64,000 nt of DNA, taken from sequence record MT446396.1, one strand, 5' to 3'. This document shows positions 145 through 51,953 of this stretch, piece by piece. This stretch comes from Escherichia virus TH22. Each line of letters begins with the position of its first letter. The stretch's first letter is position 1. A program made the translations under genes and the position numbers. The notes beneath the pieces are model-generated. The model did not search any database and was not told the DNA's origin. It saw only the letters and a program-made list of their open reading frames with translations.

Positions 145-498
145 ATGGAACGGCCTAGTCTTGCATCACATGTTTATCAATTGGCTGAATATGATATTGG
201 TGCCAATTTATTATTAGGAATTGTCACCGCTATGCTCGGGGGGCTGGTTGGCCTGGTAATGACCACAGTTATGGCTGCAATCGAGGGAGTCATGCCTATT
301 GAGATGGGCTTCTTTATGATAATTGCTCCGGCTGTTGTGGCTTATTTTATCCCGGTTGTGTATGATATCTGTCACACAAATGCCTTGAATGCTCCTAGCC
401 GCAAGAGATACGCTTCGGCAATGGCTGAGTATAATAAGTTCCTAGACAAAACAAAACGCAATGACCTTGAAACCTTTATTAAGGAATGTAAATCATGA
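145..498 (+). CDS. hypothetical membrane protein
   Basis: ATG at 145 preceded by AAGGAGG; hydrophobic segments (LLLGIVTAMLGGLVGLVMTTVMAAI, FFMIIAPAVVAYFIPVV); track ORF 52..498 starts at GTG. Confidence 0.5.
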   Translation: MERPSLASHVYQLAEYDIGANLLLGIVTAMLGGLVGLVMTTVMAAIEGVMPIEMGFFMIIAPAVVAYFIPVVYDICHTNALNAPSRKRYASAMAEYNKFLDKTKRNDLETFIKECKS

Positions 499-785
499 AT
501 AAAATTGAAATTGCTATCCCCAAGTATTATGATGAGAAATCTGCAGAAAAAGCTATCTATTCTCTTCTAAATAAGACCTCTGAAATTGAAAAACACTGTG
601 AAGAAATCGCAGATGAATATGGTATCGAATTCAGCACTGGTGATTACGGCACCGGCCGTACATATCACCCAGTCGGTTATGGATGCTCTGAATGGTTCGC
701 TCACCATATTGAAAACAACGGCGGGCAAGTTGAAAACGGCATTGTTACTGTTGGTGCCTGGGTTTCCTCTTCTGAGGTGTGCTAA
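495..785 (+). CDS. small protein, WVSSS-x-EC C-terminal family, member 1
   Basis: ATGA overlap with upstream gene; C-terminus GAWVSSSEVC shared with next three genes. Confidence 0.55.
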   Translation: MNKIEIAIPKYYDEKSAEKAIYSLLNKTSEIEKHCEEIADEYGIEFSTGDYGTGRTYHPVGYGCSEWFAHHIENNGGQVENGIVTVGAWVSSSEVC

Positions 786-786
786 T

Positions 787-1068
787 ATGATGAATGATTA
801 CCGTAAAAATAAAGAACTGGCTAACGCAGTAAATGACATCCATAAAGCTATTCGTCGTGCCGAGGAAATTGCAAACAAATATGAGACTCATTTTAATATA
901 TACCCTGCTCGCGGTATGGGCGGTGACTATTATTCTCCTGGCGCCTTGAAAACTGACCTTGCTCATTGGGAAGAACATGGTGAAGCTCAATACGCTATTG
1001 TTAACCAACACGACTACACAACAAGCCTAGAGCATGGTGGTTGGGTGTCCTCTTCTTCTGAATGTTAA
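787..1068 (+). CDS. small protein, WVSSS-x-EC C-terminal family, member 2
   Basis: In-frame ATG at 787 directly after stop of member 1; ends GGWVSSSSEC; N-terminal region resembles member 1. Confidence 0.55.
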   Translation: MMNDYRKNKELANAVNDIHKAIRRAEEIANKYETHFNIYPARGMGGDYYSPGALKTDLAHWEEHGEAQYAIVNQHDYTTSLEHGGWVSSSSEC

Positions 1069-1076
1069 GGAATTAT

Positions 1077-1274
1077 ATGTCTCGTGAATTAGATTGTGCA
1101 ATCCGTACTGCTGCGGCAGCTATTGAAAACGTTATCCAGATTTGCAAAGAAGAACGCGAAGAAGCTGATATCTACATTGATGGTGTTCGTGACTTAGAAC
1201 GACATATCACGCTTTATAACGGTTGTATTACTATTAGTGGTACCTCTTGGGTATCATCCTCTTACGAATGCTAA
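1077..1274 (+). CDS. small protein, WVSSS-x-EC C-terminal family, member 3
   Basis: ATG 1077 with AAGGA upstream; ends TSWVSSSYEC. Confidence 0.55.
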   Translation: MSRELDCAIRTAAAAIENVIQICKEEREEADIYIDGVRDLERHITLYNGCITISGTSWVSSSYEC

Positions 1275-1284
1275 GGAAATAAAA

Positions 1285-1509
1285 ATGTCTGATATTAATG
1301 AATTAGAAAAAGCAGCACTTGAACTGGCTGCATTGTATAAGAAAGTAAAAGATATGGCTTCTGCTCAAGATTTTGGTGTCGAGCTCGATGATTATGACGG
1401 CGAAGTCCGACTTGAAGACTGGTTGAACAGCTCTTGTTATGGTGAAGAAGCTGGCCGTACCTTCGTTGCTCGTGCCGATGGTAAAATCTGGTACCCGAGC
1501 AGCTGCTAA
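1285..1509 (+). CDS. small protein, divergent member 4 of C-terminal Cys family
   Basis: ATG 1285 with AAGGAA SD; ends KIWYPSSC (W-x-x-SS-C, terminal Cys). Confidence 0.5.
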   Translation: MSDINELEKAALELAALYKKVKDMASAQDFGVELDDYDGEVRLEDWLNSSCYGEEAGRTFVARADGKIWYPSSC

Positions 1510-1539
1510 AATTATCACAAGGATGTGATAGGAGGACTT

Positions 1540-1869
1540 ATGCACAGAGATTCAGTATTTAAATATCTTTTAAAAACAGATAAAGAATTTTATATGGATG
1601 GACAAGCATTCTTGTTCGTTCGCGGTAAGCGTGAAATGTTTTATAAATGCGACCTCTCCATGCATCATCACATGTACCATACCCATGGCGAGTCCATACT
1701 AGGGTTCTCTGGTGATGAGACTAAACATATAGCTATGTATTATGACCATTTCAAGCTTAATGATTGTGGTGATAATGCTTTGGTCTGGAATCCATCTTGG
1801 TGTCGGTGGGATACAATAGACAACAATAAATTATTTTTAGAATATTGCAGAAGTAGTATACAACTCTAG
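1540..1869 (+). CDS. hypothetical His/Cys-rich protein
   Basis: ATG 1540 after SD ATAGGAGGA; His-rich stretch MHHHMYHTHGE. Confidence 0.45.
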   Translation: MHRDSVFKYLLKTDKEFYMDGQAFLFVRGKREMFYKCDLSMHHHMYHTHGESILGFSGDETKHIAMYYDHFKLNDCGDNALVWNPSWCRWDTIDNNKLFLEYCRSSIQL

Positions 1870-1933
1870 AAAATCGTGTTACTATTCTCTTATCAACTGA
1901 TGACACTCACGTTATCAGAACAGGAGAATAAAA

Positions 1934-2134
1934 ATGTCTATCGCAAACGAATTAATCAAAGTTCTGAACGAAGCCAAAGCCAACCAACTGGAGGTTAATC
2001 TCCAGGAAGTTTCAGATGGCATTAAAGTAACCATCAGCGGCGATGGCGTTCCAGGCACTACAGAGGTTTACGATTCTTTGGAAGAAGTGGTTTCTTGCAT
2101 TAAAAGAGCCGTTTACTTATATGGTATAATTTGA
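1934..2134 (+). CDS. hypothetical protein
   Basis: ORF with SD AGGAGAATAAAA upstream. Confidence 0.45.
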   Translation: MSIANELIKVLNEAKANQLEVNLQEVSDGIKVTISGDGVPGTTEVYDSLEEVVSCIKRAVYLYGII

Positions 2135-2325
2135 GGAAAATATTATGTATAATGTTCTTATTGTTTTTGTCACTCATCCGCAAGGTGGAGTAAGACAGAA
2201 TACTTCTCAAGTGGTTCAATTTTCTTCACTAGAGGCCGCCAATCTTGCTGCCTCACGAATTGAAGCGAAAAAATCGGCACTTGGAAAATATGAAGTAACT
2301 CGTCTTTACTAATGAGGAAAATATT

Positions 2326-3285
2326 ATGATGTTAGTTATTGGCTCTCGCGCATTGCATAACGCCGGTCTGATTGAAAGTAAGAAAATTGAAAACTCTGAT
2401 TGGGACTTTATAGCAGACCAAGGTTCCTGGAACAACTTTAAAACCCAGATGATGGGGCAGCATGTTCCTGTGGATAACCCAGATGTGCAAGCTTTTAAGT
2501 GTATGCACAACGGTAAAGAAACCTATTTTGAAGCATACATCGTCCGAGCCCTGACAAGTGTTCGTGAGCTGACTGATGAGCTACAAGAGGAAGATTTTAC
2601 TTCCAGTTATCGTCTGCTCAAATATGCGAAGGCGAATATTCAGAAAGACCGTCTATCTGGTTTTTACTGGGCGACTCCTGATATTTGTCTGGCAATTAAA
2701 CTGTCTCATCGTTACCTGAAGAACAATCCATTCTTCCTGAAGACCATGAGTCATATTAATTACCTTCGTAATAAGGGTGTTGTTCTTAATGATGAACTGC
2801 AGAAAATCATGCTGCAACGCCAGGCAGAAACATTGTCATATAGCCACCCTAAACTAGACGTGGGCAAGAAAACTTTCTTTAATGATACAATCTATACCCT
2901 TGACCATGACTCCATCCACGAGGCCGTGGCACTTGCTGATAAGCCTGCATATAAGTTCTATATGAAGGATGATTCAGAAGTCATGACCTCACGTGAAAAA
3001 TTTGAAGCACTCCCTGATGTTATTAAACTGGCAGGGGTTTATGAAGAAGCATGTGTGCTTGCTCTGGAACGTTCACAGGTTCCTAATGAGTTCAATATCT
3101 CTCCATCCGTGAGCTTCCATATTGCTCTGGAAAAAGTCTGTACCTCCATTACTTCTGGATGGTTCCGTGAGTATGCCTGGGAACATTACCAGGATGTGGT
3201 TAATATGTACAACACCCTGGGACACGAAGACTATGTTAAACGTTTCAAAGCTAACCAACATTTAATTCGTCCTTTCGAAAAATAA
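2326..3285 (+). CDS. hypothetical protein, possible nucleotidyltransferase fold
   Basis: N-terminal GS-x16-SDWDF pattern reminiscent of Pol-beta NTase motif; SD GAGGAAAAT. Confidence 0.5.
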   Translation: MMLVIGSRALHNAGLIESKKIENSDWDFIADQGSWNNFKTQMMGQHVPVDNPDVQAFKCMHNGKETYFEAYIVRALTSVRELTDELQEEDFTSSYRLLKYAKANIQKDRLSGFYWATPDICLAIKLSHRYLKNNPFFLKTMSHINYLRNKGVVLNDELQKIMLQRQAETLSYSHPKLDVGKKTFFNDTIYTLDHDSIHEAVALADKPAYKFYMKDDSEVMTSREKFEALPDVIKLAGVYEEACVLALERSQVPNEFNISPSVSFHIALEKVCTSITSGWFREYAWEHYQDVVNMYNTLGHEDYVKRFKANQHLIRPFEK

Positions 3286-3286
3286 G

Positions 3287-3344
3287 TGTGTACAACCAAA
3301 TGGGGCTATGACATAATGGTCCCACAATCAATGAGGAAAATATT
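3287..3344 (+). promoter_or_regulatory. early (sigma70-like) promoter plus leader
   Basis: GTGTACAA -35, 17-nt spacer, CATAAT -10, leader CAATGAGGAAAAT. Confidence 0.5.
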
Positions 3345-4031
3345 ATGAACGGTCCTAAAACTTTTAATAGTCAAGCTCGTGCAGTAGGTGGTTTTGCCGG
3401 CGGTATTTCTAATGATAAAATCAAGAACGAGCCTATGTTCTTCAACTGTAGTTTAGAATTTGCTTATAATAACGGCGGTCCTATTACTCGCAGCTTCATC
3501 ATGAACTTGCCAGATGATTGGAACACCGACCAGGTTGTATTTGATTCTCGGGTTCATATGCTGATGCCTGGTTGGTATCCTGCTATCCCAGGTTATCACC
3601 ATGACGATGTACCACGCCCGGATATTCCGGTTGGTCAACACTTTATTACTGCAGGGCAACCTGATTATGATAATCCTCGTTACCATTCTGAACATATTCT
3701 TGGTCTTGTTAACGCTGATGTGTGTCCTACTTATTTTGCAACCGGAACTGCACAATTTAGTCAGATTCCTGAAGGCGAACTTATCTATCGCCAGTGGCAT
3801 AAAGAAGTTCTGGAAAAAATTGAGTCCAATGAATTAACCAAGTGGGATGCTCCTGACCGCACGTTGCTCCAGTTTGATTGGCAGACATGGCATACAGGTT
3901 CTCGCGCAGTAAGTAACGGTTGGCGCTGGTTTGGTCGCGTGTCTCGTAATACCGACCGTGTTAAAAAGATTACAAATGAAATCCGCGTTAATGCTCAAGT
4001 ATATCTGGAATTCCCTATGGAGGGATGGTAA
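3345..4031 (+). CDS. hypothetical protein
   Basis: Early promoter (GTGTACAA -35, CATAAT -10) and SD upstream; 228 aa. Confidence 0.5.
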   Translation: MNGPKTFNSQARAVGGFAGGISNDKIKNEPMFFNCSLEFAYNNGGPITRSFIMNLPDDWNTDQVVFDSRVHMLMPGWYPAIPGYHHDDVPRPDIPVGQHFITAGQPDYDNPRYHSEHILGLVNADVCPTYFATGTAQFSQIPEGELIYRQWHKEVLEKIESNELTKWDAPDRTLLQFDWQTWHTGSRAVSNGWRWFGRVSRNTDRVKKITNEIRVNAQVYLEFPMEGW

Positions 4032-4606
4032 TGATGTATGAACCCGGTTGCATGGGTGATATGAAAGGTCCACAAGGATGTGCAGGTATTCCAGTTCCAA
4101 GAGATGAATTTATGATTACCAAAAGATATTGGGCAGACCTTGATGATGGCGATGAAGGAATCAAGGTGGAAAACGTTGATTGGTCGCGATGCAATCGCCA
4201 TATGAAAGAGCTTTTAATTGAGGAATATAAAATGAAGCACATCGTTAAAGGTTGGCAACCAGAACCACATAAAGAACAAACACCTGACCCATTGATTTGT
4301 TATAGTGAAAAATATGGTTTTCGTACATGGAGCGATGAATATGACAAGTTAGTGTGCTCCAGATTCTATGCCTGGATGGGAATACTATTTTTTCCAATCC
4401 TGTGGTTTTTCCTGACAACGAAAAATGACTTGCCAGTTTGCATATTCGGGGCAGCAGTGACTGCGGCCATTGCAGGTATTATCGCCTCATTTTTATGGAC
4501 TGCGATTATTGAAGTACCTTTTCGTATTTCTAAAGTTAAAAAGGTATATGACAATATCACAAAGAAAAATACATTGAACTCTTTTATTGAGGAATGTCGC
4601 AAATGA
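4025..4606 (+). CDS. hypothetical membrane protein
   Basis: C-terminal hydrophobic segments (WMGILFFPILWFFL, IFGAAVTAAIAGIIASFLW). Confidence 0.45.
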   Translation: MVMMYEPGCMGDMKGPQGCAGIPVPRDEFMITKRYWADLDDGDEGIKVENVDWSRCNRHMKELLIEEYKMKHIVKGWQPEPHKEQTPDPLICYSEKYGFRTWSDEYDKLVCSRFYAWMGILFFPILWFFLTTKNDLPVCIFGAAVTAAIAGIIASFLWTAIIEVPFRISKVKKVYDNITKKNTLNSFIEECRK

Positions 4607-4839
4607 GTATTGCAATTTATATTAAATCCGAGTCATGTGATTCTTACCTGTATTCCTATGATAAAGGTACGCCCGAAGTTGAAATCAAAGATGATTTAGA
4701 AATTGACCTGGACTTGTTCCGCCCAATTTCTGAATACAGAGTTCAAACTTCTAGTAGTGAATCACCTTCAACAGAAACACGCATTGAAATTATTATGGCT
4801 GAAATCTTTAAAAAATCTTGGGAACGTGATGATGAGTAA
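4603..4839 (+). CDS. hypothetical acidic protein
   Basis: ATGA overlap with upstream gene; start could be 4594. Confidence 0.4.
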   Translation: MSIAIYIKSESCDSYLYSYDKGTPEVEIKDDLEIDLDLFRPISEYRVQTSSSESPSTETRIEIIMAEIFKKSWERDDE

Positions 4840-5290
4840 GAAAAACGTGGTGAAAGAATTATCTGCTGGCATTATTTTCATGACTGAAGATAAAGAGTTA
4901 TTCATGGGGCGCGTGACTGGTTCTCGCAAACCGGGTATGCCTGCGCATAAATGGGATATCCCTAAGGGTCATGTTGAAGCCGGTGAATCCCCGATTGAAG
5001 CAGCTATGCGTGAATGTGAAGAAGAAACAGGCTTTACCCAGTATGACCCGGCATTCTTAAAAGACCTAGGCGAGTTCCGTTATTCAGATAACAAAAACCT
5101 TCACCTGTTTTTGTACACGGCCCCGGTCGAGCATGAGCAGTTCAGACATAGTAAATGCTCTGCCTATCATACCTTCCCGGATGGTAGTTCGGCCCCCGAG
5201 TTTGATGCATTTGCTCTGATTAAACCGAGCCAATGGCAATACGTAATGGGTAAATCGATGTACAAGGTTTTGACTCAAATTTTCGGATAA
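4829..5290 (+). CDS. nudE: Nudix hydrolase NudE-like
   Basis: Nudix box GHVEAGESPIEAAMRECEEETG; sits directly upstream of lysozyme e as in T4. Confidence 0.8.
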   Translation: MMSKKNVVKELSAGIIFMTEDKELFMGRVTGSRKPGMPAHKWDIPKGHVEAGESPIEAAMRECEEETGFTQYDPAFLKDLGEFRYSDNKNLHLFLYTAPVEHEQFRHSKCSAYHTFPDGSSAPEFDAFALIKPSQWQYVMGKSMYKVLTQIFG

Positions 5291-5316
5291 TAAATACCCC
5301 TATATAAGGGGGTATT

Positions 5317-5808
5317 ATGAATATATTCGAAATGTTACGCATAGATGAAGGTTGTAAGTTGGATTTGTACCGTGACACCGAAGGCTTTTGGACCATCGGC
5401 ATCGGTCAATTGATAACTAAGAACCCATCGAAAGACGTTGCTCGCGCTGAGCTGGACAAATTAATGGGTCGTGTTTGCAACGGTAGGATTACCCAGATTG
5501 AAGCTGAAACCTTGTTTAACCGTTCAGTGGAAAAAGCTAAAGCCGGAATCTTGAAACATCCTGTCTTAAAACCTGTTTATGATGTACTGGATGAAGTTCG
5601 TCGTTGCGCACTCATTAATATGGTATTCCAAATGGGTGTAGCTGGTGTAGCTGGTTTTCCTAAGGGGCTGCGATTGCTCAAGGCTAAATCATGGGAAGCT
5701 GCTGCTAAGGAACTGGCTGACTCAAGATGGTATAAAGTCCAGACTCCGAACCGGGCCAAACGAGTTATTGAAACTTTCCGTACTGGAACTTTTGACGCAT
5801 ACAAATGA
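5317..5808 (+). CDS. e: lysozyme (endolysin) e
   Basis: 163 aa; [12 protein letters not shown]...GFWTIGIG matches T4 lysozyme nearly residue for residue over the N-terminus. Confidence 0.95.
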
Positions 5809-5864
5809 GTTTACATCTCCAAACGATAGGGTTATAATGACCCTATCAACTACGGAGAACAAAC
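5809..5864 (+). promoter_or_regulatory. early promoter with -10 inside inverted repeat, upstream of denV
   Basis: GTTTACA -35, TATAAT -10 within GATAGGG..CCCTATC, leader ATCAACTACGGAG. Confidence 0.55.
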
Positions 5865-6281
5865 ATGACTCGCATTAATTTAACCCTGGTATCTGAACTT
5901 GCTGACCAACACCTTATGGCTGAATACCGTGAGCTTCCTCGCGTGTTTGGTGCTGTTCGTAAGCATGTGCAAAATGGTAAAAAGGTGTCTGACTTTAAAA
6001 TCCCATCATCTTTTCTTTTAGGAACTGGTCATGTCACCTTCTTTTATGATAAGCTTTTGTTCCTTAAAAACCGTCATCAAGAACTTATTGCTGAATGTTT
6101 AAAGCGAGGGTTTAATATAAAAGATATTTCTACCCAAGATTTAAATGATATTCCTGATGAATGGAAGAATGATTATCAACCATCAATCTGGTCAATTGAA
6201 ATCAGTCAATCCAGACTGAATGAGAAAATTTCTCAAAAGCCTACCTGGTACAAATACTATGGGAAAGCTGTGTACGCTTAA
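5865..6281 (+). CDS. denV: endonuclease V (pyrimidine dimer DNA glycosylase)
   Basis: 138 aa; [35 protein letters not shown] near-identical to T4 endo V. Confidence 0.95.
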
Positions 6282-6329
6282 CTAAAAAGGTTGTATAATG
6301 ATTTTATCAACCAAACAATGGAATATAAA

Positions 6330-6644
6330 ATGAAAACTTATCAAGAATTTATTACTGAATCTACTCAACAACGTGTTGAAGGTGGTTATGTCTGGATTGA
6401 ACAGTTAACCCCACCAAGTGAAACAAGCACTGGTTCGTGGAAAATTACTGTTGATGGTCCTGGTGGAAAACGCAAGACTATTAAAGAAATTAAAGGTTAT
6501 TATGACGAAGCTAAATCATGGGCTGGTAGTCATGTAATGCAGATTAAAATTGCAAACCCAGATAACGTTCATGCGGCAAAAGCGTTCCGTCGCATTGGTA
6601 ATAAACTTTATGATGCGTTTTTGCGCGATTTCCCTAAAGCTTAA
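6330..6644 (+). CDS. internal protein with capsid-targeting sequence
   Basis: N-terminus MKTYQEFITES matches T4 IP capsid-targeting sequence MKTYQEFIAE; track ORF starts 39 nt earlier. Confidence 0.7.
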   Translation: MKTYQEFITESTQQRVEGGYVWIEQLTPPSETSTGSWKITVDGPGGKRKTIKEIKGYYDEAKSWAGSHVMQIKIANPDNVHAAKAFRRIGNKLYDAFLRDFPKA

Positions 6645-7591: not shown

Positions 7592-7887
7592 TGACTCATG
7601 AAGAGCTTTTTGACCAAATCTATTTTATTCCAAAGGTTAGGTCTGAAGATTTCGTAAAGAATTTTGAAATCTTTAATAAAGCAAATTTCTTTGAGTACGT
7701 GTTTTTGTCTGGACCTTTTATTGGGTCCAGATTTCGTTGCACTGCTCCGAGTATTCGCTTGATGAAGTTGGTTCCTTACTTTACTCTGGAATTTATTTCT
7801 GGACCATGTAGGGGTATTATAACTCGTAGCCTCCTGACGTATGACCAGGATGTGCGATTAATTAGTGACTGGAAAAAATATGTCTAA
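7591..7887 (+). CDS. hypothetical protein
   Basis: ORF in compact operon, ATGA overlap with upstream gene. Confidence 0.4.
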   Translation: MTHEELFDQIYFIPKVRSEDFVKNFEIFNKANFFEYVFLSGPFIGSRFRCTAPSIRLMKLVPYFTLEFISGPCRGIITRSLLTYDQDVRLISDWKKYV

Positions 7888-8094
7888 ACTGACGATTGAA
7901 GGCTCTGATGCAGCCTTGAAAAGATTCGTTGAATGGTTTAATGGCCCTGGCGAACAAGACTTTCTGGAAGTCTGGGACGGTGGTCAATGGAACGGTAAAG
8001 AACTGGTTTATCCTAGCACTTATATCTCCGTACAAGGTTGGACGGATGGGCTTCGTTTGGTAGAATATGATATCGCAACCGGCGAGGAAGTGAA

Positions 8095-8098
<4 letters not shown>
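7880..8098 (+). CDS. hypothetical protein
   Basis: ATG 7880 (track ORF starts at GTG 7865). Confidence 0.4.
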
Positions 8099-8677
<579 letters not shown>

Positions 8678-8678
<1 letters not shown>

Positions 8679-8734
8679 TGTACAAGCAGGTTGAAATGAG
8701 TTATGATTATCCCATCAAACAAAAGGAGATAATC
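8678..8734 (+). promoter_or_regulatory. early promoter plus leader upstream of regB
   Basis: GTGTACAAG -35, TATGAT -10, leader CCCATCAAACAAAAGGAG. Confidence 0.5.
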
Positions 8735-9193
8735 ATGACTACTATCGATTCAAGTGTTTACATTCGCCGCAATAAACTTCGTCGTATTTTTGAAACGGAG
8801 TTCCTCAAAATTAATAATGCTATCAACAAGGCTTGTAAAGAAGCAGGTCTTGAAGCATTCTTCATTAAGTACAGTCCACACCTGTTGGACCGTGCAATCC
8901 AACGTGAAATTGACGAACAATATGTTTTTGACTTGTTTGGAAAAATCACACCACATGTAAAAGAAATCGTTGAATTCCTGGAGATGAAACCACTCCCGGA
9001 AGTTGAAGCACAAATTGACCCGAGTGTGAACTACCGTCCACTTCGTCTGGAAATCACAGACAAGAACCTATGGTTAGGAATGACAGTTAACCCAGCTCTT
9101 CCTGGGAAGTCTCCAACCATGTGTTGTCGTATGGCGTTTGTTAACTCTAATCGTCTTGAAGGAAAAATTAGCACAAAAGTGATTTATATCTAA
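8735..9193 (+). CDS. regB: RegB site-specific endoribonuclease
   Basis: VYIRRNKLRR...YSPHLLDRAIQREIDEQYVFDLF...LEITDKNLWLG aligns with T4 RegB; early promoter upstream. Confidence 0.9.
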   Translation: MTTIDSSVYIRRNKLRRIFETEFLKINNAINKACKEAGLEAFFIKYSPHLLDRAIQREIDEQYVFDLFGKITPHVKEIVEFLEMKPLPEVEAQIDPSVNYRPLRLEITDKNLWLGMTVNPALPGKSPTMCCRMAFVNSNRLEGKISTKVIYI

Positions 9194-9203
9194 TGGGGAA
9201 TTC

Positions 9204-9746
9204 ATGAAAAAAGTAATCGCCACCTTACTATTGACAGTTAGTATGTCTGCCCATAGCGTAGAGCCTACTTTCAGTAATGAACAGATGGAAAATCTTCAAT
9301 ATGCTTATGCGTTTGGAGAACAGTTCCAGAAAAATGGTAAGTACAAAGAAAATCCGCACCAACATAATGGTTTGGGATATATCATGGCTGGTTTAACCTG
9401 GCAGGAATCATCTGCTGGTGTTAATACAGGATTAAATAAAGATAAGCATCATGCATATGGTATATTCCAAAATTATCTTCCAACCGTGCGCGAGCGCGTA
9501 AAACAGGTTGGGTGGACAATGACAGATAAAGAAATAATCAAGATGATAAGCAAGAGAGAGAACAGTGCACGCTGGGCTTATATTGAGTTTTCATACTGGT
9601 TAAACATTCACAAGGGGGACATAAGAAAAACACTATCATCATATAACGCAGGGTGGAATGTGAAAGCTGGAAATACGTATGCTTCGCAAGTCCTAGAAAA
9701 AGCTAACTACTTAAAATCACGAGGCCTATTAAAAACGGTGGATTAA
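9204..9746 (+). CDS. secreted lytic-transglycosylase-like protein
   Basis: Signal peptide MKKVIATLLLTVSMSAHS; QESS, YGIFQ and SYNAG motifs resemble SLT domain. Confidence 0.55.
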   Translation: MKKVIATLLLTVSMSAHSVEPTFSNEQMENLQYAYAFGEQFQKNGKYKENPHQHNGLGYIMAGLTWQESSAGVNTGLNKDKHHAYGIFQNYLPTVRERVKQVGWTMTDKEIIKMISKRENSARWAYIEFSYWLNIHKGDIRKTLSSYNAGWNVKAGNTYASQVLEKANYLKSRGLLKTVD

Positions 9747-10106
9747 ATGGTAAGAGTCATAACTTTAGCCATAGGGTTAGTATTCAGCACGGGAGGAATA
9801 GCTTCAGTACAGAGCGATGACAATAATAGCATCATAGAATATGCAACGAGGACGGCCAAAGATTATTGCGCATCAAGCAATGTGGATTGTGTAATCCGGT
9901 TCAGTGCCAAGCTCACCGCGGCATATAAAGACGGTCAAAATGATGTTGAACACACTCTTATGAAAAAGAGCACTTTATCCAACAAATATGAAAAGAAACT
10001 ATTTGAAATGGATTGTATTCTGTCGAGTGCCAAATATAAAGCGGCCTGCACCAGTATGGTTGACAGGTTAGTCGATTCCTATAACAGAGGATTGAACTCT
10101 AAATGA
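9747..10106 (+). CDS. hypothetical secreted protein
   Basis: N-terminal signal-like segment MVRVITLAIGLVFSTGGIASV. Confidence 0.45.
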   Translation: MVRVITLAIGLVFSTGGIASVQSDDNNSIIEYATRTAKDYCASSNVDCVIRFSAKLTAAYKDGQNDVEHTLMKKSTLSNKYEKKLFEMDCILSSAKYKAACTSMVDRLVDSYNRGLNSK

Positions 10107-10567
10107 TTGTTAACTATATTAAGGGCGATATTGTCGCCCTTTTTCTCGAAGGAAACATCATAGCTCATGGCTGTAACTGCTTCCATACAATGGGTTCAGG
10201 CGTTGCTGGCCAACTGGCAAAGGCTTACCCAAAAATTTTAGAAATGGATAAGACAACAACTGAATACGGTTCCCGAGAAAAACTCGGTGATATGTCTATT
10301 GTTTTTAAACATAAGCCAACTGGATTTGGTATGTGCTATAACCTTTATACCCAGTATGAACCGGGTCCAAATCTGGATTATGGCGCTTTAGTAAATTGTA
10401 TGATAGAATTAAATCTACAAGCAGAAACCCTTTTGTTTAAACCGGTAATTTATATTCCCAGGATTGGCTGTGGTATTGCAGGTGGTGATTGGGATAAGGT
10501 TTCCCGGTTAATTGATATGTTTACTCCTGATATTGATTTGATAGTGGTGGATTATGAGTCAAACTAG
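10103..10567 (+). CDS. macro-domain protein (putative ADP-ribose binding/hydrolase)
   Basis: GDI...NIIAHGCNCFHTMGSGVAGQL and IPRIGCGIAGG follow the macro-domain motif pattern. Confidence 0.6.
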   Translation: MIVNYIKGDIVALFLEGNIIAHGCNCFHTMGSGVAGQLAKAYPKILEMDKTTTEYGSREKLGDMSIVFKHKPTGFGMCYNLYTQYEPGPNLDYGALVNCMIELNLQAETLLFKPVIYIPRIGCGIAGGDWDKVSRLIDMFTPDIDLIVVDYESN

Positions 10568-10760
10568 TATTCTTAAAAATGCTCACTGTGAAAAGTGTAA
10601 ATGGCCAGTTGTTTTTGCTTTATGCAACGATGAAATGATATGTGATTTTGATTATTGGTGCTATTGTTCTAATAAAGGGTGTGTGAATCATGCAGGCGCC
10701 GGTTTCTATTCCGGGTTTCAACCGTATCCAGACTTTGTAAAACAAGGTGAACCGAAATGA
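10554..10760 (+). CDS. hypothetical Cys-rich protein
   Basis: Multiple Cys pairs (CEKCKW, CYCSNKGC). Confidence 0.4.
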   Translation: MSQTSILKNAHCEKCKWPVVFALCNDEMICDFDYWCYCSNKGCVNHAGAGFYSGFQPYPDFVKQGEPK

Positions 10761-10942
10761 GTTTAAGTATTAGTCAGAAAAGTAGATTGTTTGAGCTTAT
10801 CCATGAGCTTTTGGACGAGCATACGGAAGCGAACGCTTTTTATGATGAATACGGCCCGATAGATGCCGAGCATCAGGAAGAATTTGCTAATCGGTTTGAT
10901 GAGAAAGAAAACGAATTAATTGCTTATGTGAATACTCTTTAA
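10757..10942 (+). CDS. hypothetical protein
   Basis: ATGA overlap with upstream gene. Confidence 0.4.
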   Translation: MSLSISQKSRLFELIHELLDEHTEANAFYDEYGPIDAEHQEEFANRFDEKENELIAYVNTL

Positions 10943-10951
10943 GAAGGTGAT

Positions 10952-11524
10952 ATGGCGAGTTTAATTTATCATTACGCGGCAATGAATGCAGGCAAAACAG
11001 CTTCATTGCTGACTGCAGCTTATTCCTATAAAGAGCGTGGAATGAGTGTGCTTTTGCTAAAACCTGTTATTGATAATCGGGACTCGGAATCTGAAATTAA
11101 ATCACGTATTGGTATTAGCCAGGAAGCAAACCTGGTAACGGCCGACATGAACCTGTTTGAATTCTATAAATGGGCCGAGTCTCAAAAGGATATCCATTGT
11201 GTCCTGGTCGATGAAGCTCAATTTTTGTTACCAGAGCAAATTGACCAGTTAGCACGAGTGGTTGATAATTATAATATCCCCGTTATGTGTTACGGGCTAA
11301 GAACAGATTTTCGGGGTCAGTTATTTCCCGGTTCGGCCAGACTTCTGGCTATTTCGGATAAACTGGTTGAATTAAAGGGCGTCTGCCATTGCGGCCGGAA
11401 AGCAACCATGACCGCTCGAGTAATCGACGGTGCTGCTGTAAAGGTCGGCGAGCAAGTATTGGTCGGTGGGAATGAATCGTACGTATCTTTATGCAGGAAA
11501 CATTGGCTCGAATTGACAAGCTGA
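10952..11524 (+). CDS. tk: thymidine kinase
   Basis: MASLIYHYAAMNAGKTASLL P-loop and C-terminal zinc motif CHCGRKATMTAR match T4 Tk. Confidence 0.95.
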   Translation: MASLIYHYAAMNAGKTASLLTAAYSYKERGMSVLLLKPVIDNRDSESEIKSRIGISQEANLVTADMNLFEFYKWAESQKDIHCVLVDEAQFLLPEQIDQLARVVDNYNIPVMCYGLRTDFRGQLFPGSARLLAISDKLVELKGVCHCGRKATMTARVIDGAAVKVGEQVLVGGNESYVSLCRKHWLELTS

Positions 11525-11531
11525 GGTCCTT

Positions 11532-11807
11532 ATGATATATAAGATTTGGACGTATATCTCTATTTTTGTTATTGCTGGAATTGCATTTATCCCCACACAA
11601 ACAGATAGCGAGAGATATGAAAGGGAAATTGAAATAGTAGCAAGCACGTACCATTCTGTTAATAAAGAATGCCCGAATAAAAATGGAATAAATTTACAAA
11701 AAGCACATTATATGCTGACTGTTACTAGCCCAGTGCAAAGAATATGGGTTGATAGACATTTTTCTGATTTATTTGCAATATATTGTTTCAAGTTTAAAAG
11801 ATTATAA
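11532..11807 (+). CDS. hypothetical membrane protein
   Basis: N-terminal TM segment IWTYISIFVIAGIAFIP. Confidence 0.45.
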   Translation: MIYKIWTYISIFVIAGIAFIPTQTDSERYEREIEIVASTYHSVNKECPNKNGINLQKAHYMLTVTSPVQRIWVDRHFSDLFAIYCFKFKRL

Positions 11808-11810
11808 ATA
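11803..11810 (+). promoter_or_regulatory. late promoter TATAAATA upstream of rI
   Basis: Exact TATAAATA octamer. Confidence 0.5.
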
Positions 11811-11881
11811 CAGTTACTAACTAGTATTCCGCTATGTTAAGGCTGCAAAGCGTAATCATGACCAACAATAAGGAGTCCTTT

Positions 11882-12178
11882 ATGGACCTTATTCGAGGAC
11901 TTTCTCTAAGTCTATTACTAATGGGCTGTTTAGGCCCAAATCTGTCCTCTGCTACAGATGGTAAATTTACCCAGTACGCAGATAGTGCGATGCAAATCTA
12001 TTCGCAATTCAAAGAACCCAGCGTCGAGCAGTCCGAACAATTTTGGGCTTTTATTAAAACCGAATGGAACAATAAGAGTCAATGTGTAAATGAAATCACA
12101 TGTCAAATTGATGGCCGGGCTGCTGCAGTCGAATACGCTAAATTAATGAAGGTAAAATTGGAAGATGAAATTCGATGA
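11882..12178 (+). CDS. rI: lysis inhibition regulator RI (antiholin)
   Basis: VEQSEQFWAFIKTEWNNKSQC...AAAVEYAKLMKVKLE aligns with T4 RI; late promoter TATAAATA at 11803; start could be 11834 or 11858. Confidence 0.8.
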   Translation: MDLIRGLSLSLLLMGCLGPNLSSATDGKFTQYADSAMQIYSQFKEPSVEQSEQFWAFIKTEWNNKSQCVNEITCQIDGRAAAVEYAKLMKVKLEDEIR

Positions 12179-50733: not shown

Positions 50734-51294
50734 ATGAACATCATCAAATCTGATACCGAACCCAACCAGTTAAAATTTAGTGAAATGGAGATAGCTTCAT
50801 TATTTGAATGCCGTACATCAAAGGTTGATAAGACCTTGCATTCAAATGTCAACTCAATCATCAAGTCAAGGTTGTCTATACCCGATACAGTCTTGTGGCG
50901 CGGGGTAACCCAGCAAGAGATTGATTTGTTAGATGAAGCAAAAGAATCAATGCAACCTTTTGAATTTGGACGGATAACCTCCTTTACAGAAGACTATGGT
51001 ATTGCCAGGGATTTTGCTGCAATGGAATATGTGACTAGGACTATCGTCAGATTGAATCAGACCAAAGCTTTTTGTTACCATGATGCGATGCGCAAAATCG
51101 CACTTGATGTTCCACTTGAATTCTTCAATACAGCTTCTGGTTCCGCACGGGCAGCTACATTAAGGCGTGAAGAATACATGGACATGATTGATTCCGAGCT
51201 TGAATGGTTTGTTCCAGTTGACCAGAAATTCGTGGTAGTTGATGCTGGATTTATTGATGATTATTATGTTCTTGACTGTGTACAAGAGCAATAA
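50734..51294 (+). CDS. ADP-ribosyltransferase, ModA/ModB family
   Basis: R-S-E signature: LWRG, SFTEDYGIARDFA (STS-like), ELEWFVP (ExE-like). Confidence 0.55.
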   Translation: MNIIKSDTEPNQLKFSEMEIASLFECRTSKVDKTLHSNVNSIIKSRLSIPDTVLWRGVTQQEIDLLDEAKESMQPFEFGRITSFTEDYGIARDFAAMEYVTRTIVRLNQTKAFCYHDAMRKIALDVPLEFFNTASGSARAATLRREEYMDMIDSELEWFVPVDQKFVVVDAGFIDDYYVLDCVQEQ

Positions 51295-51338
51295 GACACG
51301 TTAAGATGTTCCTATCAACTACTGATGAGGATAATAAA

Positions 51339-51953
51339 ATGCTGTACACTGATGACGTTTTGAATGGAATTATTGACACTGCCGCTTCTAGTGAGTCTTT
51401 TCGTAACCAATGCCAAGCGGAGATTGATGCTCTTTATACAGATAATGAGCAATCAGTACTCTGGCAGTGTATGGAAAATAAACCTGACCTGATTCAAGAA
51501 GACTTGTCCAGGATTATCCGCAACAATCTGAATACTGCACCACCCCCGGCGTTGTTCCGTGGTATATCAAAGAAAACTATGGAATACCTGGAAGATTTAA
51601 GATATGTTGGTGCAACGATTGAATTCAATCGTGTAATGAGTTTTTCCAGGGACTGGCAGGTTGCAAGAAATTTCGCATCATACAGTTTCTATGGAACAAG
51701 GAATATTTTCTGCATAAACAATGCACCATATGCGTATAACTATCAGGAAGCAATCTTCAAAATGATTTGTGGTGCTCCTCCTGAAGAGTTCAATGGTGCA
51801 TATCCAGAAGCAACCAGGAAGTCAAACTTGCACCTGGTTAATGATGAAGATGAGTTTATGTTTCCCGCTGGGACTACGCTCCGCGTAGACTTGATTGAAA
51901 CACACCCATTGAATAACCTGTATACTGTTTGGCATTTGACTGTTTTGAACTAA
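51339..51953 (+). CDS. ADP-ribosyltransferase, ModA/ModB family
   Basis: LFRG, SFSRDWQVARNFA, EDEFMFP; paralog of upstream gene. Confidence 0.55.
   Translation: MLYTDDVLNGIIDTAASSESFRNQCQAEIDALYTDNEQSVLWQCMENKPDLIQEDLSRIIRNNLNTAPPPALFRGISKKTMEYLEDLRYVGATIEFNRVMSFSRDWQVARNFASYSFYGTRNIFCINNAPYAYNYQEAIFKMICGAPPEEFNGAYPEATRKSNLHLVNDEDEFMFPAGTTLRVDLIETHPLNNLYTVWHLTVLN

Follow-up and report, generated by a model that had tools for sequence, protein, structure and literature searches.

The macro-domain gene and its locus

The window, that is, the whole stretch of 64,000 nucleotides from Escherichia virus TH22 (MT446396.1) analysed here, contains one macro-domain gene, and no further macro gene was found either in the window or in the rest of the genome of Escherichia phage UPEC01 (MW233709.1; Tevenvirinae, Gaprivervirus), with which positions 9000-12000 are 100% identical. 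The gene and its junction with the preceding gene are as follows:

10103..10567, + strand: macro-domain gene, ortholog of T4 tk.4/adfM; ATG start, 154 aa plus stop (from the list of open reading frames and the translation)
10103..10106, + strand: ATGA start/stop overlap of the macro gene with the upstream gene vs, 9747-10106 (from the sequence and the list of open reading frames)

The 154-aa reading frame and the motifs quoted for it in the preliminary description were recovered exactly in the translation of 10103..10567, with G8-D9-I10, N18..L38 (NIIAHGCNCFHTMGSGVAGQL) and I118..G128 (IPRIGCGIAGG) all present. The opposite strand holds only ORFs of 33 and 35 aa, neither of which is a competitor. 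At its 3' end the macro gene overlaps the next ORF (10554-10760) by 14 nt, and the overlaps at both ends indicate that it belongs to a cluster of closely spaced genes running in one direction, ordered regB–vs.1–vs–macro–…–tk by PHROG names, in which two small ORFs and tk lie downstream of the macro gene. A promoter and terminator scan of positions 7600-11800 returned 12 promoter-like sites against 12.1 expected and was thus uninformative on expression. Comparison with the copy in phage ime09 gave a dN/dS of 0.026, the synonymous sites being almost saturated, and the gene is thus under strong purifying selection. The UPEC01 copy already carries the annotation 'macro domain-cintaining protein' (QQG30795.1, in MW233709.1).

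Family membership and predicted fold

The predicted product matched the Pfam Macro profile PF01661 with 33.5 bits (gathering cutoff 22; E 4.4e-8) over profile positions 2-117 of 118, and PHROG 335 with an E value of 4e-70. Its AlphaFold2 model, computed from an input alignment of 53 family members with the T4 row left out, reached a pLDDT of 95.3 and a pTM of 0.90. When this model was compared with the PDB by Foldseek, the 19 best matches were all natural macrodomains (19/19, prob 1.00, TM 0.69-0.81), followed by designed hydrolases at ranks 20-22. TARG1, Poa1p, the DarG macrodomains and BT1257 were the top fold matches (prob 1.00, TM 0.73-0.81), placing the protein in the TARG1/ALC1-like class. 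We are confident that the product of 10103..10567 is a macro domain, predicted to adopt the three-layer alpha/beta/alpha fold, and the macro-domain assignment first made from the letters alone is upheld by the above-threshold PF01661 score, the PHROG 335 match and the agreement of AlphaFold2 and Foldseek.

Such proteins are not peculiar to this phage. A homolog is encoded in 2768 of 50,697 phage records, and the family comprises 18,641 clusters (50% identity, E ≤ 1e-3). Macro domains are present in about 41% of myoviruses, and phage macro domains are commonplace (PMC9503650).

Predicted ADP-ribose cleft and active site

The predicted cleft and active site of the protein are made up of the following motifs:

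10124..10132, + strand: G8-D9-I10, N-terminal Gly-Asp (D in 87 and N in 32 of 121 homologs; aligns with the GD of TARG1, SCO6735 and BT1257)
10166..10180, + strand: H22-G23-C24-N25-C26, strand-end motif with the conserved His and Asn of the predicted active site (from homologs and hhalign)
10193..10207, + strand: G31-S32-G33-V34-A35, GxG loop 1 of the predicted ADP-ribose cleft (G33 in 121/121 homologs, G31 in 109/121)
10340..10354, + strand: N80-L81-Y82-T83-Q84, Gln at the catalytic-Lys position (Q84 in 243/243 homologs, N80 and Y82 each in 242/243)
10457..10492, + strand: P119-R-I-G-C-G-I-A-G-G-D-W130, predicted diphosphate-binding loop 2 (P119, G122, G124 and W130 invariant)

In other macrodomains the N-terminal Asp contacts adenine. 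This residue, GxG loop 1 and the Gly-rich loop 2 are all found in the window protein, which thereby appears, as judged from its sequence, to have the elements of an ADP-ribose cleft. D9, G31-x-G33 and G122-x-G124-x-x-G127-G128 are kept over 121-243 homologs; H22, G23, N25, C26, G33, N80, Y82, Q84, P119, G122, G124 and W130 are invariant or nearly so over the same range (121 to 243 homologs), and the first four of these occur in all ungapped homologs (119/119). The preliminary description had made its assignment depend on profile searches and on the presence of the binding pocket; the profile score lies above the gathering cutoff and the putative ligand-binding loops are conserved, so the assignment stands on both counts.

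GxG loop 1 is invariant through TARG1, DarG, SCO6735 and PhiKZ AdfM in the multiple alignment, and the string PRIGCG[IL]AGGxW is common to the window protein, SCO6735, BT1257 and Adpp. N25 corresponds in the alignment to the Asn in the 'TVN' motif of DarG and PhiKZ, at which an N23A mutant had reduced activity (PMC13309987). The counterparts of Q84 are K80 in the FPTK motif of DarG and Gln85 of SCO6735 (both by hhalign) and K84 of TARG1. A126 occupies the column of the TARG1 catalytic D125, and the TARG1 dyad K84/D125 is thus replaced by Q84/A126 in the window protein.

Relationship to Gln-type and Lys-type macrodomains

SCO6735 (PDB 5E3B) and BT1257 of Bacteroides (2AFC/2FG1) resemble the window protein in being ALC1/TARG1-like, in having no toxin partner and in carrying Gln at the catalytic-Lys position, at an identity of about 25-31%; SCO6735 is bacterial and chromosomal, whereas the window protein is viral. 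SCO6735 of Streptomyces coelicolor, likewise a stand-alone macrodomain, has Gln85 at the Lys position and lacks both TARG1 catalytic residues; it is efficient in hydrolysing thymidine-ADP-ribose made by DarT, does not hydrolyse guanosine-ADP-ribose and rescues E. coli from DarT, the Q85A and Q85E variants being inactive (PMC9411070). SCO6735 was represented in our comparisons by a Streptomyces ortholog that was found by a degenerate DNA pattern and reproduces the published numbering (H24, V25, N27, K34, Q85). Profile alignment by hhalign to SCO6735/BT1257 (prob 99.0, E 3e-18) was slightly better than that to DarG-type domains (E 4e-16) and paired H22 with H24, N25 with N27, N80 with N81 and Q84 with Q85. 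A different register against SCO6735/BT1257, given by MAFFT and BLASTP with NMVGQ as an insertion, was overruled by the published structural equivalence and hhalign.

The two proteins differ downstream of the catalytic Gln. The spacing from this residue to the conserved Tyr is 8 in the window protein and 14 in SCO6735, whose 6-7-residue post-Gln insertion is missing from the window protein. This insertion has been proposed as a DNA clamp, and K34 and K89 of SCO6735 have been implicated in DNA and diphosphate positioning (PMC9411070); the equivalents of these lysines in the window protein are S32 and G88. The pI also differs (4.92 for the window protein, 9.6 for SCO6735), but net charge and pI were dropped as a test of DNA-directed activity, since PhiKZ AdfM, a proven DNA de-ADP-ribosylase, is equally acidic (pI 5.05).

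Human TARG1/OARD1 and yeast Poa1p belong to the same macrodomain subclass at about 20-24% identity to the window protein, with matches at E 1e-9 and TM 0.74-0.81 for TARG1 and at E 9e-10 and TM 0.77 for Poa1p. The DarG macrodomain (5M3I, 5M31) likewise has the fold in common with the window protein (TM about 0.74), together with the conserved Asn and the Gly-rich loops, and the job proposed for DarG and PhiKZ gp104, removal of DarT2 thymidine-ADP-ribose, is also the one proposed here for the window protein. In the catalytic column, however, DarG and PhiKZ gp104 have Lys (FPTK) where the window protein has Gln84. DarG, moreover, binds DarT through a C-terminal domain and has darT next to its gene, whereas the window protein, with its 154 aa, is without such a domain, and no darT lies beside its gene, the neighbours being vs and small T-even ORFs. 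Against the DarG equivalog model NF048014 of NCBIfam the window protein scored 27.9 bits, far from the cutoff of 250 and over profile positions 2-138 of 338 only. The PADLOC DarG scores were 133 bits for PhiKZ gp104, 36 for T4 Tk.4 and 27 for the window protein.

PhiKZ gp104, named 'AdfM', removes DarT2 ADP-ribose from DNA in vitro (PMC13309987, Cell Rep 2026). It matches Mtb DarG with an E value of 9e-25, and the BLASTP match between it and the window protein is barely significant. On the evidence of their sequences, T4-type and PhiKZ 'AdfM' are separate macrodomain lineages under one name, Gln-type and Lys-type, respectively. Since PhiKZ gp104 is of the DarG lineage, its biochemistry backs the concept of a phage macrodomain acting against DarT2 but does not simply transfer to the window protein. 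The T-even AdfM is Gln-type, SCO6735/Adpp-like and not DarG-like in its catalytic residue, so that the mechanism is not to be copied from DarG.

Orthology with T4 tk.4 and its genetics

The preliminary description knew of no such protein in T4, a statement that has to be corrected. The corresponding slot in T4 is occupied by tk.4 (NP_049723, labelled 'phosphatase; contains A1pp phosphatase motif'), within the gene order regB–vs.1–vs–tk.4–tk.3–tk.2–tk.1–tk, and its product is 59% identical to the window protein over the full length and gap-free (155 and 154 aa, respectively). The neighbouring genes of the window are 60% (regB), 65% (vs.1), 46% (vs), 49% (tk.2) and 72% (tk) identical to those of T4. 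The shared vs–tk.4–tk slot, an identity of 59% within the 46-72% of the flanks, and the presence of a sole macro gene identify the window gene as the ortholog of T4 tk.4. The two proteins also have in common the H/N/N/Q signature, the short post-Gln loop of 8 residues and their clade in the neighbour-joining (NJ) tree of 243 tips, in which the most recent common ancestor with T4 Tk.4 spans 51 tips and that with Adpp 189. By identity to the window protein, T4 Tk.4 (59%) ranks before Adpp (38%) and SCO6735-like proteins (31%). The diphosphate loop differs, reading GCGIAGGDW, the family consensus, in the window protein and GAGIGKGNW in T4 Tk.4, and the small ORF downstream of the window macro gene is non-homologous to T4 tk.3.

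The existence of T4 tk.4 removes the novelty that had been implied for the window gene. The gene is already known, both from its GenBank annotation and from the published counter-defence phenotype of the T4 ortholog; it carries little weight as a discovery and is useful as a correction, in that T4 has the gene, and as a refinement.

In the HIDEN-SEQ study, a preprint of November 2025, a T4 transposon library was screened on a DarTG2 host and tk.4 was the sole significant hit; a clean tk.4 knockout was DarTG2-sensitive. The authors renamed the gene adfM (anti-DarT factor Macrodomain) and went no further than to say that removal of ADP-ribose from DNA by an enzyme 'seems likely' (10.1101/2025.11.20.689424). 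T4 without both adfA and adfN stays DarTG2-resistant (PMC11825919), and the adfM result fills the gap left by this observation. By analogy with its ortholog, the 59%-identical window allele would be expected to matter on a DarTG2 host as T4 tk.4 does, and the T-even protein would presumably act by hydrolysing DNA-linked ADP-ribose.

A probable counter-defence against DarTG2

The window protein is, in our view, probably an orphan Gln-type macrodomain glycohydrolase that would strip DarT2-type thymidine ADP-ribosylation from phage ssDNA and thus serve as an anti-DarTG2 counter-defence, by analogy with the T4 ortholog. During infection, host DarT2 would ADP-ribosylate thymidines in single-stranded phage DNA, and the window protein would bind the DNA-linked ADP-ribose in its cleft and hydrolyse the bond between ribose C1'' and thymine N3, so that free ADP-ribose is released, the base is restored and replication could continue. 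The site used for this would be the Gln-type one (H22, N25, N80, Q84 and the GCGIAGG loop), similar to that of SCO6735, in place of the Lys on which DarG relies or the Lys/Asp pair of TARG1. Counting against this explanation are the identity of only 59% to the T4 allele, the differing diphosphate loop of the latter, the phosphatase activity of the relative Adpp, the missing SCO6735 insertion and the low scores with DarG models.

Neutralisation of DarT2 mainly by binding of the toxin ('interaction-inhibition'), with hydrolysis secondary or dispensable, is a quite improbable alternative. DarT is inhibited in vitro by the catalytically dead mutants SCO6735 Q85A, DarG K80A and TARG1 K84A, the strongest effect being that of SCO6735 (PMC9411070), and the diverged alleles (59%), the purifying selection and the swapping between genera form the pattern expected if the alleles were matched to different toxin variants. 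Nevertheless, the cleft residues are invariant or nearly so in 243 diverse homologs, and such conservation of the catalytic and ligand-binding cleft argues that selection maintains catalysis; a DarG-style C-terminal DarT-binding domain is also missing from the 154-aa protein.

UPEC01 encodes, outside the window, an ortholog of the anti-DarTG1 factor AdfN (gp30.3) with 85.5% identity, and its presence alongside the macro gene fits a layered anti-DarT armament. A homolog of AdfA (T4 61.2) was not detected at E 1e-3, either in the window or elsewhere in the UPEC01 genome.

Relationship to Adpp and the NARP1 pathway

Distant homologs in Vibrio Thalassavirus phages and an Acinetobacter Saclayvirus lie between or beside PRPS-like and nicotinamide-phosphoribosyltransferase-like genes. 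A preprint of January 2026 recognises this gene order as NARP1-AP, an Adps–Adpp–Namat operon. Its macro protein Adpp, studied in Vibrio phage Gary, is an ADPR-1''-phosphate phosphatase resembling Poa1p; the purified enzyme converts ADPR-1P to ADPR, which lets NARP1 rebuild NAD+ after aRES attack, and loss of any one of Adps, Adpp and Namat abolishes the anti-aRES activity (10.64898/2026.01.28.702374). The macro protein of Vibrio phage Athena is 98% identical to Gary Adpp and 38-43% identical to the window protein. Compared by way of the Athena protein, Adpp and the window protein have in common the H..CNC and N.Y.Q motifs and the active-site signature, the Athena loop reading GCGLAGGDW, and Adpp is, as is proposed for the window protein, a phage-encoded counter-defence enzyme.

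These similarities bear on the reading that the window protein is mainly an ADPR-1''-phosphate phosphatase of the Adpp/Poa1p type, turning the ADPR-1''-P made by aRES, a RES-domain NAD+ phosphorylase, into ADP-ribose, which we regard as unlikely. It agrees with the 'phosphatase' label given to the family by PHROG 335 and RefSeq and with the old 'A1pp phosphatase' annotation of T4 tk.4; moreover, Poa1p is among the best matches in both sequence and fold, and the relative Adpp shares the active-site signature. Adpp, however, depends on Adps and Namat, and tblastn (1e-3) detected no homolog of either in the window or elsewhere in the UPEC01 genome, so that the phage could not rebuild the ADP-ribose produced into NAD+. 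The loop from the Gln to the conserved Tyr also differs, with 15 residues in the Athena and Acinetobacter phage proteins (n=2 examined) against 8 in the window protein and T4, and these NARP1-linked macro proteins (n=2) sit outside the T-even clade in the NJ tree. Finally, T4 becomes DarTG2-sensitive when its ortholog is deleted, which argues against a phosphatase as the main activity.

The phosphatase and DarT2-counter activities are not mutually exclusive. It is conceivable, though rather doubtful, that T-even Tk.4 is a leaving-group-agnostic 'ADPR-1''-X hydrolase' that could remove both thymine (DarT2) and phosphate (aRES), and that the swapped alleles might differ in their specificity for substrates or DarT variants. 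If this were true, one small enzyme family would stand behind two counter-defences, AdfM and Adpp. The interest that remains in the locus is modest and concerns the biochemistry of the putative Gln-type enzyme of T-even phages, with dT-ADPr DNA or ADPR-1''-P as candidate substrates, and its possible overlap with the activity of Adpp.

ADP-ribosylation by the phage itself and soluble ADP-ribose derivatives

Two ADP-ribosyltransferase genes were recognised far downstream of the macro gene:

50734-51294: ModA/ModB-like ADP-ribosyltransferase (PHROG 832 'RNA polymerase ADP-ribosylase', E 7e-28)
51306-51953: ModA/ModB-like ADP-ribosyltransferase (PHROG 832 'RNA polymerase ADP-ribosylase', E 2e-38)

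Their products are 29-37% identical to T4 ModA/ModB, in agreement with the preliminary description, which had placed two ModA/ModB-like enzymes at 50734-51953, and an Alt-like ART is also encoded in the genome. From the presence of the former two, the window protein had been proposed either to erase phage-made ADP-ribosylation or to counter DarT-type toxins of the host. The two roles have fared differently, the counter to DarT being backed, by analogy, by genetics at the level of the ortholog (the T4 tk.4 deletion is DarTG2-sensitive), whereas for the eraser there is co-occurrence in one genome only.

That the macro domain would erase or tune the phage's own Alt/ModA/ModB modifications on host proteins or RNA is very unlikely, even though the genome carries the ModA/ModB-like ARTs (50734-51953) and an Alt-like one, and an Arg-specific macrodomain does exist in MavL of Legionella (cited in PMC13036486). 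Given MavL, the argument that macrodomains never cleave Arg-ADP-ribose was dropped (cited in PMC13036486). However, some 40 kb separate the macro gene from the mod genes, with which it is not organised together, and its homologs are spread over many phage groups with differing neighbourhoods. The substrates of the characterised relatives in this subclass are thymine/uracil-ADPr, Glu/Asp-ADPr or ADPR-1''-P, and in no case Arg-ADPr. In the T4 screen, tk.4 was conditionally needed on the DarTG2 host only (10.1101/2025.11.20.689424). In the CmdTAC paper, T4 macrodomains are not connected with the ADP-ribosylation of mRNA.

Least probable of all is that the protein degrades or sequesters soluble ADP-ribose derivatives, such as O-acetyl-ADPr or cyclic-ADPR immune signals, and not macromolecular adducts. 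Many homologs are labelled 'O-acetyl-ADP-ribose deacetylase' by JGI, and soluble ADPr derivatives may be what phage macro domains prefer, as was argued in a comparative survey (PMC9503650). Nevertheless, the JGI labels are automatic, and this alternative would not explain why T4 without tk.4 is DarTG2-sensitive.

Alleles among T-even phages

In ime09 (Tequatrovirus), regB, vs.1, vs, tk and rI.1 are 96-100% identical to those of T4. The tk.4 gene of this phage is 58% identical to the T4 copy and 94% identical to the window copy, and tk.2 has been swapped as well. This pattern indicates that T-even genera exchange tk.4 as a cassette, with at least two ancient alleles in circulation. Both alleles are under strong purifying selection. 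Lys at position 127, as in the T4-type loop, occurs in 5 of the 243 homologs.

Exchange of tk.4 alleles among T-even phages

When the region 10103-10942 of the window was compared with 2501-3346 of the Tequatrovirus ime09 (sequence L012) and 5532-6390 of T4 (L002), the flanking genes of ime09 were 96-100% identical to those of T4. The ime09 tk.4, counterpart of the macro-domain gene of the window, was 94% identical to the window allele and 58% to that of T4, and its tk.2 was 80% and 54% identical, respectively, so that both genes are of the Gaprivervirus/window type. As read from the sequences, the pattern at tk.4/tk.2 in ime09 is a cassette-like allele exchange. Given T4-like flanks together with window-type tk.4 and tk.2, two ancient tk.4 alleles were therefore swapped between T-even genera. 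Internal dN/dS of the window-type tk.4 allele was 0.026.

The T4 Tk.4 allele, which is the one tested experimentally, carries an atypical diphosphate loop, PRIGAGIGKGNW, at residues 119-130, and its Lys at position 127 occurs in only five of 243 homologs. The window protein has retained the family consensus loop PRIGCGIAGGDW (10457-10492), which is common to Streptomyces SCO6735, Bacteroides BT1257 and the ADPR-1''-phosphate phosphatase Adpp.

Macrodomain lineages and operon context

The name AdfM has been given independently in two papers to different proteins, PhiKZ gp104 (PMC13309987) and T4 Tk.4 (bioRxiv 10.1101/2025.11.20.689424). The former is a Lys-type, DarG-like macrodomain, whereas Tk.4 belongs, like the window protein, to the Gln type; scores against the PADLOC DarG model were 133 bits for gp104, 36 for Tk.4 and 27 for the window protein. 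The two AdfM proteins are separate lineages of the macro fold.

Distant homologs of the window protein were located in two NAD+-reconstitution operons (PRPS-like Adps, macro, Namat-like), arranged as in the NARP1-AP/Adpp system (bioRxiv 10.64898/2026.01.28.702374):
Vibrio phage Athena (L014), 2632-5638
Acinetobacter phage vB_AbaM_B09_Aci01-1 (L013), 404-3974
RNA ligase genes flank both loci.

Neighboring genes, and ADP-ribosylation-related genes elsewhere in the genome

The macro gene is adjoined by vs (9747-10106), T4's most depleted gene in minimal medium according to the HIDEN-SEQ preprint (10.1101/2025.11.20.689424), and is overlapped at its 3' end by another ORF:
10554-10760, + strand, Cys-rich 68-aa ORF, PHROG 2306
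Its cysteines (CEKCKW…C…C…CSNKGC) look zinc-binding in pattern, and no similarity was detectable to tk.3, which occupies the same slot in T4.

Two further genes were identified in the part of Escherichia phage UPEC01 outside the window:
MW233709.1 103906-104364 (L015 43907-44365), ortholog of AdfN (gp30.3, anti-DarTG1 NADAR), 85.5% identical to T4
MW233709.1 107073-109133 (L015 47074-49134), Alt-like ADP-ribosyltransferase
No homolog of AdfA (T4 61.2) was detectable anywhere in the UPEC01 genome. Both Mod-like ORFs at 50734-51953, described as ModA/ModB-like, match T4 ModB (31% and 37%), and the first matches ModA at 29%, no better than ModB; instead of one ModA and one ModB, they may both be ModB-like and paralogous to each other.

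Relation to the deposited UPEC01 record

Window positions 9000-12000 matched MW233709.1 at 100%, but 1-2846 showed only 97.4% identity to 166958-169801, where that linear record ends as deposited. This contrast suggests either a difference in circular permutation or terminal repeats, or a closely related assembly, and not exactly MW233709.1, as the source of the window. Several product names in the UPEC01 annotation table (L001) seem mis-propagated, such as mobD.x ORFs named 'molybdopterin-guanine dinucleotide biosynthesis protein MobD' and surplus 'endoribonuclease' and 'thymidine kinase' names.
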